Assembly: GCF_016026235.1 (NCBI RefSeq)
Contig: NZ_CP065613.1
Length of the DNA: 64,000 nucleotides
Source: Escherichia coli
GTDB lineage: Bacteria; Pseudomonadota; Gammaproteobacteria; Enterobacterales; Enterobacteriaceae
Reading direction: 5' to 3' (one strand)
Shown here: in pieces, positions 3,968-50,642 of the stretch
Layout of the letters: every line of letters begins with the position of its first letter
Position numbering within the stretch: position 1 is the first letter of the stretch
Notes under the pieces: model-generated
Seen by the model: only the letters and a program-made list of their open reading frames with translations
What the model was told of the DNA's origin: nothing
The model's database searches: none
Program-made: the position numbers and the translations under genes

Positions 3968-10031
<6,064 letters not shown>

Positions 10032-10067
10032 TTAACAATAAGTAATGTTTGCGCTGTAAATGTAGAT

Positions 10068-10084
10068 TGCAGGGTTCGTGCCAG
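10068..10084 (-). promoter_or_regulatory. Sigma-54-type promoter (-24 GG / -12 GC) upstream of astC
   Basis: Minus strand reads CTGGCAC-gaacc-CTGCA, matching TGGCAC-N5-TTGCA, about 75 bp upstream of the astC start. Confidence 0.55.
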
Positions 10085-10440
10085 CCAGTGATGAAAGTGC
10101 ATAAACCGCGGAGGCTAACTGGAAATCAAGGAGTTATAACCAAACCATATGCATTTAAAGTGCATATTAAGTGAATACGTTTGCGATGTGAGCGAATAAA
10201 AAGAATAAAAAACGCAATGTTATGCAGAAGTAAAATATAATTCTGGAATTGTGATCATTGACGAAATTTACTGGAAATTACTGCGCCATTCTGACGCAGC
10301 TCGCACCAAAAGCGGGCATTTTTTGCGCCATCGTTGACATCATTAACAACCATCGATCAAATCACTTAACAACAGGCGGTAAGCAAAGCGAAATTCTGCT
10401 ACCATCCACGCACTCTTTATCTGAATAAATGGCAGCGACT

Positions 10441-11247
10441 ATGAAATTTGTCTCTTTTAATATCAACGGCCTGCGCGCCAGGCCCCACCAGCTTAAAGCC
10501 ATCGTCGAAAAGCACCAACCGGATGTGATTGGCCTGCAGGAGACAAAAGTTCATGACGATATGTTTCCGCTCGAAGAGGTGGCGAAGCTCGGCTACAACG
10601 TGTTTTATCACGGGCAGAAAGGCCATTATGGCGTGGCGCTGCTGACCAAAGAGACGCCGATTGCCGTGCGTCGCGGCTTTCCCGGTGACGACGAAGAGGC
10701 GCAGCGGCGGATTATTATGGCGGAAATCCCCTCGCCGCTGGGCAATGTCACCGTGATCAACGGTTACTTCCCGCAGGGTGAAAGCCGCGACCATCCGATA
10801 AAATTCCCGGCAAAAGCGCAGTTTTATCAGAATCTGCAAAACTACCTGGAAACCGAACTCAAGCGTGAAAATCCGGTGCTGATTATGGGCGATATGAATA
10901 TCAGTCCTGGCGACCTGGATATTGGCATTGGCGAAGAAAACCGTAAGCGCTGGCTGCGTACCGGTAAATGCTCTTTCCTGCCGGAAGAGCGCGAATGGAT
11001 GGACAGGCTGATGAGCTGGGGGTTGGTCGATACCTTCCGCCATGCGAATCCGCAAACAGCAGATCGTTTCTCATGGTTTGATTACCGCTCAAAAGGTTTT
11101 GACGATAACCGTGGTCTGCGCATCGACCTGCTGCTCGCCAGCCAACCGCTGGCAGAATGTTGCGTAGAAACCGGCATCGACTATGAAATCCGCAGCATGG
11201 AAAAACCGTCCGATCACGCCCCCGTCTGGGCGACCTTCCGCCGCTAA
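10441..11247 (+). CDS. xthA: Exodeoxyribonuclease III
   Basis: ORF 10429-11247; start at [14 protein letters not shown] gives 268 aa. Confidence 0.93.
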
Positions 11248-45254: not shown

Positions 45255-45570
45255 AATTAATCATTCCTTAAACAAATGTTTAGCGGGCGACAAAGTTTAC
45301 CCGTCAATACATCGAAACCCAACCTTTTTACGTTTTCATTTTTTAAAGTAACTGTTTAATTTTCCTGACGCGGATGACACCGCGCTTACAGCCAAATGAA
45401 TTTAGCGTTACTGGCGAGCCTTGTCTTTACATTAATTATGCAAAATTTATGGATGAGTTGTTGATATGCCATTGAAATTAAGAAAGCCGTGCAGGCAAGT
45501 TTTCCATTTGCCATCTACGCTTAATTTTGAAGGTGTATCACCGGGCACGTTGTTCTCATCGTCGATAAAA

Positions 45571-45586
45571 TGGCATGAGAGTTGCT
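45571..45586 (+). promoter_or_regulatory. Sigma-54-type promoter motif upstream of yeaG
   Basis: TGGCAT-gagag-TTGCT (GG-N10-GC) about 105 bp upstream of the yeaG ATG. Confidence 0.5.
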
Positions 45587-45689: not shown

Positions 45690-47624
45690 ATGAATATATT
45701 CGATCACTATCGCCAGCGATATGAAGCTGCCAAGGACGAAGAGTTCACACTGCAGGAGTTTCTTACCACTTGTCGGCAAGATCGCAGTGCTTATGCCAAC
45801 GCGGCTGAGCGGCTATTGATGGCTATCGGTGAGCCTGTCATGGTCGATACAGCCCAGGAACCCAGACTTTCTCGACTCTTTTCTAACCGGGTCATTGCAC
45901 GTTATCCGGCATTTGAAGAGTTTTACGGCATGGAAGACGCGATTGAACAGATTGTCTCTTATCTGAAACACGCGGCTCAGGGGCTGGAAGAGAAGAAACA
46001 AATCCTGTATCTGCTGGGGCCTGTGGGTGGGGGTAAATCATCGCTTGCTGAGCGACTGAAATCATTAATGCAGCTCGTACCGATTTATGTATTGAGCGCC
46101 AACGGTGAGCGTAGCCCGGTCAACGATCATCCGTTCTGTCTTTTCAATCCGCAGGAAGATGCTCAGATTCTGGAAAAAGAGTATGGCATTCCTCGCCGTT
46201 ATCTCGGCACCATCATGTCGCCGTGGGCGGCAAAACGTCTGCATGAATTTGGTGGCGATATTACTAAGTTCCGGGTAGTGAAGGTCTGGCCGTCCATTCT
46301 GCAACAAATTGCTATCGCCAAAACAGAGCCCGGTGATGAGAACAACCAGGACATCTCCGCGCTGGTAGGGAAAGTCGATATTCGTAAACTCGAACACTAC
46401 GCGCAGAATGACCCAGACGCCTATGGCTATTCCGGCGCACTGTGCCGCGCCAACCAGGGGATCATGGAATTCGTTGAGATGTTTAAAGCACCGATTAAAG
46501 TGCTGCATCCCTTGTTAACCGCCACTCAGGAAGGTAACTACAACGGGACGGAAGGTATCTCCGCCCTGCCGTTCAACGGGATTATTCTCGCCCACTCGAA
46601 CGAGTCCGAATGGGTCACTTTCCGTAATAACAAAAACAACGAAGCCTTCCTCGATCGTGTTTACATCGTGAAGGTGCCGTATTGCTTGCGCATTTCCGAA
46701 GAGATCAAAATCTACGAGAAATTGCTTAATCACAGTGAATTGACTCACGCCCCATGCGCCCCTGGCACGCTCGAAACACTGTCACGTTTTTCCATTCTTT
46801 CGCGCCTGAAAGAGCCAGAAAACTCCAGCATTTATTCAAAGATGCGGGTTTATGATGGCGAAAGTCTGAAAGACACCGATCCCAAAGCCAAGTCGTATCA
46901 GGAATATCGTGACTACGCCGGTGTCGATGAAGGGATGAACGGTCTGTCGACGCGTTTTGCGTTTAAGATCCTCTCCCGCGTGTTCAACTTCGATCATGTA
47001 GAAGTGGCAGCAAACCCGGTCCATCTGTTCTACGTCCTAGAACAGCAGATCGAGCGCGAGCAGTTCCCACAAGAGCAGGCAGAACGCTATCTGGAGTTCC
47101 TGAAAGGTTATCTGATCCCGAAATATGCCGAGTTTATTGGCAAAGAGATCCAGACGGCCTACCTTGAATCCTATTCCGAATATGGGCAAAACATTTTCGA
47201 CCGTTATGTTACCTACGCGGATTTCTGGATTCAGGATCAGGAGTATCGCGATCCGGATACCGGGCAGCTGTTTGACCGCGAGTCTCTTAACGCCGAGCTG
47301 GAGAAAATCGAGAAACCGGCGGGGATCAGTAATCCAAAAGATTTCCGCAACGAGATTGTTAACTTCGTACTGCGCGCCAGAGCCAATAACAGCGGACGCA
47401 ATCCGAACTGGACCAGCTATGAAAAACTGCGCACGGTTATCGAGAAGAAAATGTTCTCCAATACCGAGGAGCTGTTGCCGGTTATCTCGTTTAACGCCAA
47501 AACGTCAACCGACGAGCAGAAGAAACACGACGACTTTGTCGACCGTATGATGGAAAAAGGCTACACCCGTAAACAGGTGCGTTTACTGTGCGAATGGTAT
47601 TTGCGCGTACGTAAATCGTCTTAA
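45690..47624 (+). CDS. yeaG: PrkA-family serine protein kinase
   Basis: 644-aa ORF with Walker A GPVGGGKSS. Confidence 0.9.
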   Translation: MNIFDHYRQRYEAAKDEEFTLQEFLTTCRQDRSAYANAAERLLMAIGEPVMVDTAQEPRLSRLFSNRVIARYPAFEEFYGMEDAIEQIVSYLKHAAQGLEEKKQILYLLGPVGGGKSSLAERLKSLMQLVPIYVLSANGERSPVNDHPFCLFNPQEDAQILEKEYGIPRRYLGTIMSPWAAKRLHEFGGDITKFRVVKVWPSILQQIAIAKTEPGDENNQDISALVGKVDIRKLEHYAQNDPDAYGYSGALCRANQGIMEFVEMFKAPIKVLHPLLTATQEGNYNGTEGISALPFNGIILAHSNESEWVTFRNNKNNEAFLDRVYIVKVPYCLRISEEIKIYEKLLNHSELTHAPCAPGTLETLSRFSILSRLKEPENSSIYSKMRVYDGESLKDTDPKAKSYQEYRDYAGVDEGMNGLSTRFAFKILSRVFNFDHVEVAANPVHLFYVLEQQIEREQFPQEQAERYLEFLKGYLIPKYAEFIGKEIQTAYLESYSEYGQNIFDRYVTYADFWIQDQEYRDPDTGQLFDRESLNAELEKIEKPAGISNPKDFRNEIVNFVLRARANNSGRNPNWTSYEKLRTVIEKKMFSNTEELLPVISFNAKTSTDEQKKHDDFVDRMMEKGYTRKQVRLLCEWYLRVRKSS

Positions 47625-49166: not shown

Positions 49167-50642
49167 ATGATTCAGTCAACACGTATTTCCATGGGGTTAT
49201 TCTTTAAATATTTTTTATCGTTAACGAAAATTGATCCTGGTCAAAACTATATATCTCTGCCATCAATAAAATCCAGCACTCACATTGCTCTCCTTTTTAT
49301 GGTTTCTATGGGTACACAAAAATTAAAAGCTCAAAGCTTTTTTATTTTCAGTTTATTGCTGACGTTAATTTTATTTTGCATTACTACCTTATATAACGAA
49401 AACACAAATGTAAAACTCATCCCACAGATGAATTACCTGATGGTTGTTGTGGCTTTGTTTTTCCTTAACGCCGTCATTTTTCTTTTCATGTTAATGAAAT
49501 ATTTTACTAACAAACAAATTTTACCAACACTCATTTTAAGCCTTGCATTTTTAAGTGGCCTTATCTATTTAGTTGAAACCATTGTAATTATCCATAAACC
49601 AATTAACGGCAGTACACTGATCCAGACAAAGTCGAATGATGTTTCTATTTTCTATATTTTCCGCCAACTCAGTTTTATTTGTTTAACCTCGCTGGCGCTC
49701 TTTTGTTATGGAAAAGACAACATCCTTGACAACAATAAGAAAAAAACTGGCATTCTGTTGCTGGCGCTGATTCCTTTTTTAGTTTTTCCCCTTCTGGCAC
49801 ACAATCTGAGCAGTTATAACGCTGACTATTCTTTGTATGTCGTCGATTACTGTCCGGACAACCATACTGCGACCTGGGGAATCAACTATACAAAAATATT
49901 GGTTTGTCTGTGGGCATTTTTACTGTTCTTTATTATCATGCGTACACGATTAGCCAGCGAACTATGGCCGTTAATAGCATTATTATGTCTGGCATCGCTA
50001 TGCTGCAACTTACTTCTACTGACTCTGGATGAGTATAATTATACCATCTGGTATATCAGTCGCGGGATTGAAGTCTCCAGTAAACTGTTTGTTGTGTCTT
50101 TTCTGATTTATAACATTTTTCAGGAGCTGCAACTCTCCAGCAAACTGGCAGTTCATGATGTGCTGACCAATATTTATAATCGGCGCTACTTTTTCAACAG
50201 CGTAGAGTCATTATTGTCGCGACCTGTTGTTAAGGACTTCTGTGTCATGCTGGTTGATATTAATCAGTTCAAGCGCATCAATGCCCAATGGGGACATCGT
50301 GTGGGTGATAAAGTGCTGGTTTCAATTGTCGATATTATCCAGCAAAGCATCCGCCCCGATGATATTTTAGCGCGACTGGAGGGTGAGGTGTTTGGCTTGC
50401 TATTTACCGAACTCAATAGTGCCCAGGCAAAAATCATTGCGGAACGTATGCGTAAAAATGTCGAACTCCTGACCGGCTTTAGTAACAGATATGATGTTCC
50501 TGAACAAATGACCATCAGTATTGGCACGGTTTTTTCAACGGGTGACACGCGTAATATCTCGCTTGTCATGACGGAAGCAGATAAAGCCTTACGCGAAGCG
50601 AAAAGCGATGGGGGCAACAAAGTGATTATTCATCATATTTAA
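49167..50642 (+). CDS. yeaI: GGDEF-domain membrane protein with degenerate active site
   Basis: 491 aa; N-terminal multi-TM region; GGDEF position reads EGEVF (…ARLEGEVFGLLF…). Confidence 0.85.
   Translation: MIQSTRISMGLFFKYFLSLTKIDPGQNYISLPSIKSSTHIALLFMVSMGTQKLKAQSFFIFSLLLTLILFCITTLYNENTNVKLIPQMNYLMVVVALFFLNAVIFLFMLMKYFTNKQILPTLILSLAFLSGLIYLVETIVIIHKPINGSTLIQTKSNDVSIFYIFRQLSFICLTSLALFCYGKDNILDNNKKKTGILLLALIPFLVFPLLAHNLSSYNADYSLYVVDYCPDNHTATWGINYTKILVCLWAFLLFFIIMRTRLASELWPLIALLCLASLCCNLLLLTLDEYNYTIWYISRGIEVSSKLFVVSFLIYNIFQELQLSSKLAVHDVLTNIYNRRYFFNSVESLLSRPVVKDFCVMLVDINQFKRINAQWGHRVGDKVLVSIVDIIQQSIRPDDILARLEGEVFGLLFTELNSAQAKIIAERMRKNVELLTGFSNRYDVPEQMTISIGTVFSTGDTRNISLVMTEADKALREAKSDGGNKVIIHHI

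Follow-up and report, generated by a model that had tools for sequence, protein, structure and literature searches.

The window, which is the whole stretch of 64,000 nt of Escherichia coli DNA that was analysed, includes a divergent intergenic region between the astC and xthA genes. An original prediction, made from the raw sequence, had placed a -24/-12 element on the minus strand of this region. The question raised by this locus is whether that element is the sigma-54-dependent promoter of a nitrogen-regulated arginine succinyltransferase (ast) operon, part of a promoter of another kind, or a chance match to a short consensus.

The astC gene is represented by a 406-aa ORF (8775..9995, minus strand), which is followed by same-strand ORFs with the sizes of astA, astD, astB and astE. 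The astC, astA and astD genes were named from the RefSeq annotation of a 99.8%-identical strain, in which xthA is divergent; the astB and astE genes are presumably the ORFs of matching size, taken in the known order of the operon. A regional megablast search returned a match in 5,424 of the 5,426 complete E. coli genomes, annotated as astC and xthA. As predicted, the element was located within this divergent region; the predicted length of 433 bp did not hold. That value is obtained from the first in-frame ATG of the divergent ORF, at 10429 (plus strand). In the RefSeq annotation of both the 99.8%-identical strain and MG1655, xthA starts 12 nt later, at window position 10441 (MKFVSF...), which gives 445 bp; the difference is due to the in-frame ATG upstream of the annotated start. 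The features of the region are listed in Table 1.

Table 1. Positions of the ast operon, its promoter elements and candidate upstream sites in the window. Negative positions are relative to the predicted sigma-54 transcription start.
Feature	Position	Strand	Basis
astC-astA-astD-astB-astE operon	3968..9995	-	ORF list, RefSeq annotation of 99.8%-identical strain, ORF sizes and order
Predicted sigma-54 transcription start (A)	10057	-	Bonocora's rule: 19 bp downstream of motif centre
Candidate sigmaS-type -10, CTACATT	10059..10065	-	Abuts the -12 box; conservation; reported RpoS dependence
Sigma-54 -24/-12 core promoter element, CTGGCACGAACCCTGCA	10068..10084	-	Direct read, PWM, ChIP-seq identity, conservation
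Conserved block, TTTATGCA	10098..10105	-	At -48 or -47 in 58/59 loci
IHF-consensus site, AATCAAGGAGTTA (WATCAANNNNTTR, perfect)	10124..10136	+	Centre ~-73
ArgR-box-like region, TATTCACTTAATATGCACTTTAAATGCATA	10148..10177	-	ARG-box matches with 3 and 4 mismatches
Conserved block, possible ArgR half-box, AGAATTATATTT	10233..10244	-	At -186..-188 in 57/59 loci
CRP-like block, TTCGTCAATGATCACA	10250..10265	-	GATCACA half at -198..-200 in 59/59 loci
NtrC-like dyad, promoter-proximal, TGCGTCAGAATGGCGCA	10282..10298	.	Centre ~-233; 9/12 match to TGCACC-N5-GGTGCA
NtrC-like dyad, distal, TGCCCGCTTTTGGTGCG	10302..10318	.	Centre ~-253; 9/12 match; 20 bp from the proximal dyad

The motif and its score against chance

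Direct reading of the minus strand around the motif (...cactggCTGGCACgaaccCTGCAatctacat..., or as a longer stretch ...cactggCTGGCACgaaccCTGCAatctacatttacag...) placed the 17-mer CTGGCACGAACCCTGCA from 10084 to 10068. The predicted fit to TGGCAC-N5-TTGCA was reproduced on re-reading, with both dinucleotides intact; GG occupies 10082-10081 and GC occupies 10070-10069, and they are 12 bp apart, as that consensus demands and as is expected of a sigma-54 promoter of the form TGGCAC-N5-TTGCW. The one mismatch to the consensus in TGGCACGAACCCTGCA is a C that replaces the first T of TTGCA. The distance from the 3′ end of the motif to the astC ATG (9995) was measured as 73 bp, close to the 75 bp that had been estimated. 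The motif is intergenic and in the sense orientation, and the 62 nt between the predicted start and astC is inside the range of 1-254 nt that holds for most published intergenic sites.

Plain consensus matching was rejected as support for the motif, since the counts were at chance level: in the 64-kb window there were 2 matches with no more than one mismatch (2.4 expected) and 16 matches at a looser setting (15.4 expected). Because these counts were indistinguishable from background, a leave-one-out position-weight matrix (PWM) was built instead. The training set comprised 40 intergenic sites from published sigma-54 ChIP-seq data (Bonocora et al. 2015, Table 1), with the astC and yeaG sites excluded because both loci lie inside the window. 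When both strands of the window were scanned, the astC 17-mer scored 17.9 bits and ranked first of approximately 128,000 positions; the matrix scan suggested with the original prediction therefore returned the motif as its best match. This score, from a matrix that excludes the astC site, exceeded the median training-site score (15.5 bits, range 8.9-21.5). Dinucleotide shuffling yielded 0.15 hits of this quality per window, which corresponds to about 5e-4 for a single strand of the intergenic region, and 13.5% of the shuffled windows held at least one hit at least as good as the astC motif. A built-in scan for sigma-70 promoters and terminators detected nothing relevant at the core promoter.

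Two other positions in the window scored highly with the same matrix. The second-best match, TTGGCACGGTTTTTTCA (50521-50537, plus strand, 16.45 bits), lies in the sense orientation within the 3′-terminal part of a 491-aa ORF (49167-50642), and the next ORF (50643) begins 105 nt further on. It was not among the sites in the high-stringency ChIP-seq tables of Bonocora et al. (2015), and may be either an intragenic site of low occupancy or a case of a good motif without binding. The third-best match, ATGGCATGAGAGTTGCT (45570-45586, plus strand, 16.1 bits), has the same sequence as both the Salmonella STM1285 site and site OS18 (yeaG) of the published sigma-54 ChIP-seq data; 93 nt separate its predicted start from the downstream 644-aa ORF at 45690, in agreement with the published distance.

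Binding data and conservation

The 17-mer was identical to a site at which sigma-54 binding has been detected in E. coli K-12. Site OS17 of the sigma-54 ChIP-seq study of Bonocora et al. (2015) has the motif CTGGCACGAACCCTGCA on the minus strand, with b1748 (astC) as the downstream gene, a predicted start 62 bp from that gene, a fold-above-threshold (FAT) value of 7, a PSSM score of 11.3 and, as relayed in that paper, the EcoCyc status 'C', which denotes experimental confirmation. Occupancy was detected in mid-log cells grown in M9-glycerol, and it was concluded that in such cells most or all sites were bound by inactive holoenzyme (Bonocora et al. 2015). The MG1655 promoter (astCp2, OS17; 1832055-1832071 in U00096.3) and that of the window share the 17-mer, the strand, the 62-nt distance and the divergent xthA gene. 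The two regulatory regions are 98% identical, with eight substitutions in 466 aligned bases; one of these is between the motif and the ATG, and two are in the conserved -50..-36 block (window 10107 and 10093).

Published data from Salmonella and from other studies of E. coli point in the same direction. In Salmonella enterica Typhimurium LT2 the sigma-54 site of STM1303 (astC), TGGCACGAATGCTGCAAT, was enriched 4-fold by ChIP-chip and assigned to NtrC. It is at the orthologous position and shares TGGCACGAA..CTGCAAT with the window, whereas its spacer has TG where the window has CC. In NtrC ChIP-seq of nitrogen-starved E. coli an astCADBE peak was recorded, for which both 'direct binding' and evidence from expression are listed. 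Genomic SELEX (gSELEX) with RpoN holoenzyme, NtrC or both gave peaks in the astC/xthA spacer, and the gSELEX paper counts astC as one of seven experimentally confirmed RpoN targets. Several sources state that astCADBE is activated by NtrC under nitrogen limitation. Under the name astCp2, given to it in at least two papers, the promoter has been used in synthetic circuits as an NtrC-driven sigma-54 promoter that is reportedly weak and naturally bound by ArgR. All of these binding data are from K-12 or Salmonella, rather than from the strain of the window.

For the comparison between genera, orthologues were gathered from species-representative genomes with a degenerate pattern for the AstC N-terminus (ENFDEWM), so that the collection carried no bias towards the motif. 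This approach identified 76 loci, 58 of which encode AstC and have enough upstream DNA. They represent Escherichia, Salmonella, Citrobacter, Enterobacter, Leclercia, Lelliottia, Kosakonia, Phytobacter, Silvania, Pseudenterobacter and Huaxiibacter, together with unclassified MAGs. In 57 of the 58 loci the orthologous site scored highest with the PWM on the sense strand upstream of astC, and in Enterobacter wuhouensis, the exception, it ranked second; its distance from the ENFDEWM codons was 92-94 nt throughout. Both CTGGCTGGCA (-31..-22) and TGCA (-14..-11) were invariant across 59 AstC loci (57 distinct sequences, approximately 12 enterobacterial genera), while spacer positions -17 and -16 were free to vary, with information contents of 0.98 and 0.20 bit in the 57 distinct sequences. 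Fixed contact bases with a drifting spacer are the signature expected of sigma-54 recognition. Information content was also high from -50 to -36 in the same 57 sequences.

Within E. coli, a 66-bp core with no more than two differences was present in 5,424 of 5,426 complete genomes, and the 17-mer was unchanged in the most divergent alleles that were checked. The strain of the window has C at -36 (10093) and G at -50 (10107), where nearly all other E. coli strains and the other genera have T and C, respectively; its exact 66-bp core allele was found in only three of the 5,424 genomes.

The original prediction that this is the sigma-54 promoter of the nitrogen-regulated ast operon was thus borne out by the identical K-12 ChIP-seq site, the Salmonella binding data, the NtrC ChIP-seq and gSELEX peaks and the invariant GG and GC boxes. 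The 17-mer at 10068-10084 is almost certainly the sigma-54-dependent promoter of astCADBE, a promoter that is already known, experimentally confirmed and textbook-ordinary. Its value here is as a calibration point, since an experimentally confirmed sigma-54 promoter was located with single-base accuracy by an unaided reading of raw sequence. The comparative footprint documents how rigidly a regulatory architecture is held across enteric genera and opens no new question.

Conserved blocks upstream of the promoter

The search for enhancer-binding-protein sites had been directed at 100-150 bp upstream, an expectation that was not realised; the candidates instead lie further upstream, approximately 225-261 bp from the predicted start. 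They consist of two tandem NtrC-like dyads. A TGC-N11-GC core was present at the proximal dyad in 33 of the 59 loci, with YGCCC...GGGCG dyads at that offset in many others, and at an unchanged offset at the distal dyad in 53 of the 59. The distal dyad is poorly conserved in S. enterica arizonae, whereas the proximal one is good. Since the NtrC consensus was not enriched in the 64-kb window (28 occurrences with up to three mismatches, compared to 33.7 expected), each NtrC-like site is weak on its sequence alone, and the assignment is based on arrangement and conservation.

The published NtrC ChIP-seq interval for astC (1830021-1830101 in U00096.2) is centred on the core promoter and not on the proposed enhancer. 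The intervals for astC (window 10021-10104), nac, ddpX, rutA and yeaG were all on or beside the sigma-54 core promoters and not at NtrC sites upstream of them. Such placement may reflect looping-mediated cross-linking or limited resolution, and does not locate the enhancer. A terminator-like hairpin with a T-run (GCTCGCACCAAAAGCGGGC ATTTTTTGCG) at 10299-10317 on the plus strand coincides with the distal dyad. It was rejected as a terminator, there being no gene upstream on that strand, and probably arises only from the symmetry of the dyad.

Several further blocks lie between the candidate enhancer and the promoter (Table 1). Within the ARG-box-like region, TATTCACTT was at -120 or -119 in 55 of the 59 loci, and ArgR has been reported to act at the astC promoter. 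Involvement of CRP at ast is stated in a passage of a paper that cites Kiupakis and Reitzer. The IHF-like site was at -79 or -78 in 58 of the 59 loci; its consensus bases did not change, whereas its N4 spacer did, giving 26 different 13-mers. Approximately three matches to the perfect IHF consensus are expected per whole window. In the sources consulted on the astC promoter no mention of IHF was found and ArgR was named as the architectural factor. We infer the NtrC, ArgR, CRP and IHF labels of the individual blocks from consensus matches and from the regulators listed in the literature.

The offsets of the NtrC-like dyads and of the blocks between them and the promoter were fixed to within 1 bp across genera. 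This scarcity of indels over approximately 200 bp, seen in a dozen genera, suggests that the nucleoprotein architecture is stereospecific, and rigid spacing is what a weak promoter that has to be reached by looping from a distant enhancer would be expected to show. The region resembles glnHp2 of E. coli, a weak NtrC/sigma-54 promoter that is helped by IHF, in that both promoters are weak and reportedly require a DNA-bending protein between enhancer and promoter. It differs in the helper protein, which is IHF at glnHp2 but ArgR at astC in the literature, and in the much more distant enhancer candidates at astC (~-233 and ~-253).

The predicted transcription start, a probable overlapping promoter and the proposed mechanism

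The predicted start gives a 62-nt leader to the astC ATG, which matches the published value of 62, and corresponds to MG1655 position 1,832,044; the A at this position was invariant in the 57 distinct sequences. Possibly incomplete copies of two genome-wide transcription start supplements, searched in both genome versions, contained no entry near it. The cultures concerned were not nitrogen-limited and hence were uninformative on this point.

The sequence immediately downstream of the -12 box also carries a good sigmaS-type -10, CTACATT (within TCTACATTTAC), at -8..-2 of the sigma-54 promoter. Positions -9..+3 (T.TACATT.ACA) were nearly invariant across genera, beyond what sigma-54 recognition needs, and the ast operon has been reported to be RpoS-dependent in stationary phase. 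From this pattern we infer an overlapping sigmaS promoter, whose putative start would follow that of the sigma-54 promoter by a few bases. Kiupakis and Reitzer are said to have described both a sigma-54 and a sigmaS promoter in 2002.

It could be argued from the same -10 and the same RpoS dependence that the block is mainly a sigmaS/sigma70 promoter for stationary-phase expression of astC (cstC), with the TGGCAC...TGCA pattern a by-product of its conservation. This explanation is very unlikely, since physical binding of sigma-54 has been found at precisely this motif in K-12 and at its Salmonella orthologue, and since invariant GG and GC boxes around a free spacer are a sigma-54 signature. Furthermore, the hexamer at the -35 position for the sigmaS-type -10, TGGCTG, matches TTGACA at only two of six bases. 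The two kinds of promoter are also compatible, and both probably exist here.

Their closeness raises the question of what bound sigma-54 does to its neighbour, since a sigma-54 closed complex and the sigmaS promoter share the same 30 bp and the sigmaS-type -10 falls within the sigma-54 footprint. That bound sigma-54 is mainly a roadblock, a poised closed complex that represses the sigmaS promoter and directs little sigma-54 transcription, is more improbable still: NtrC-dependent activation of astCADBE under nitrogen limitation is reported by several sources, EcoCyc counts the promoter as confirmed, and the fixed spacing of the conserved enhancer dyads favours productive activation. Occlusion is possible as an extra role and not as the main one. 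The weakest alternative, a functionless chance match to a short degenerate consensus, agrees with the background-level consensus counts and with the shuffled windows that held an equally good PWM hit, but has against it the correct orientation and distance of the motif upstream of a known Ntr-regulated operon (the shuffling estimate for that stretch being about 5e-4), and is effectively refuted by the invariant core in approximately 12 genera and by ChIP evidence for the identical sequence.

With the element read as a sigma-54 promoter, a mechanism can be proposed whose first and last steps follow established knowledge of sigma-54/NtrC promoters. Sigma-54 holoenzyme on the GG (-24) and GC (-12) boxes would form a closed complex that is unable to open alone. 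Under nitrogen limitation phospho-NtrC would oligomerise on the tandem dyads approximately 233 and 253 bp upstream, contact the polymerase through a DNA loop and open the promoter by ATP hydrolysis, with transcription predicted to begin near 10057, at a distance of 62 nt from astC. Given an unusually distant enhancer and a promoter that is reportedly weak, ArgR with arginine, and possibly IHF, may bend the intervening DNA and favour the loop, which would explain superinduction by arginine. The overlapping sigmaS-type -10 would probably give separate stationary-phase expression, with sigmaS serving as a starvation input and CRP as a carbon input. The locus is a well-studied case of signal integration in which nitrogen (NtrC/sigma-54), arginine (ArgR), starvation (sigmaS) and carbon (CRP) signals meet in one short region.

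A more doubtful elaboration, which is offered tentatively, is that the poised sigma-54 holoenzyme gates sigmaS expression by occlusion and that the IHF site is a second, constitutive bending element. If the latter is true, the IHF element would let an enhancer approximately 240 bp away reach a weak promoter. The conserved IHF-consensus site and sigmaS occlusion are the only potentially new points at this locus; they are modest details, and both could already be in the 2002 paper.

The astC leader itself (9996-10056, minus strand) was also scanned. In an Rfam scan of the leader and spacer region all hits were below threshold and attributable to chance (mgtC_leader, 23 bits compared to a gathering score of 48), and there was no Rfam hit in the leader. 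Weak ARG-box-like matches were present at +11..+50, and parts of the 62-nt leader were conserved across genera, for example TTAACAT at approximately +23..+29, AAC at +37..+39 and TTTA at +46..+49.
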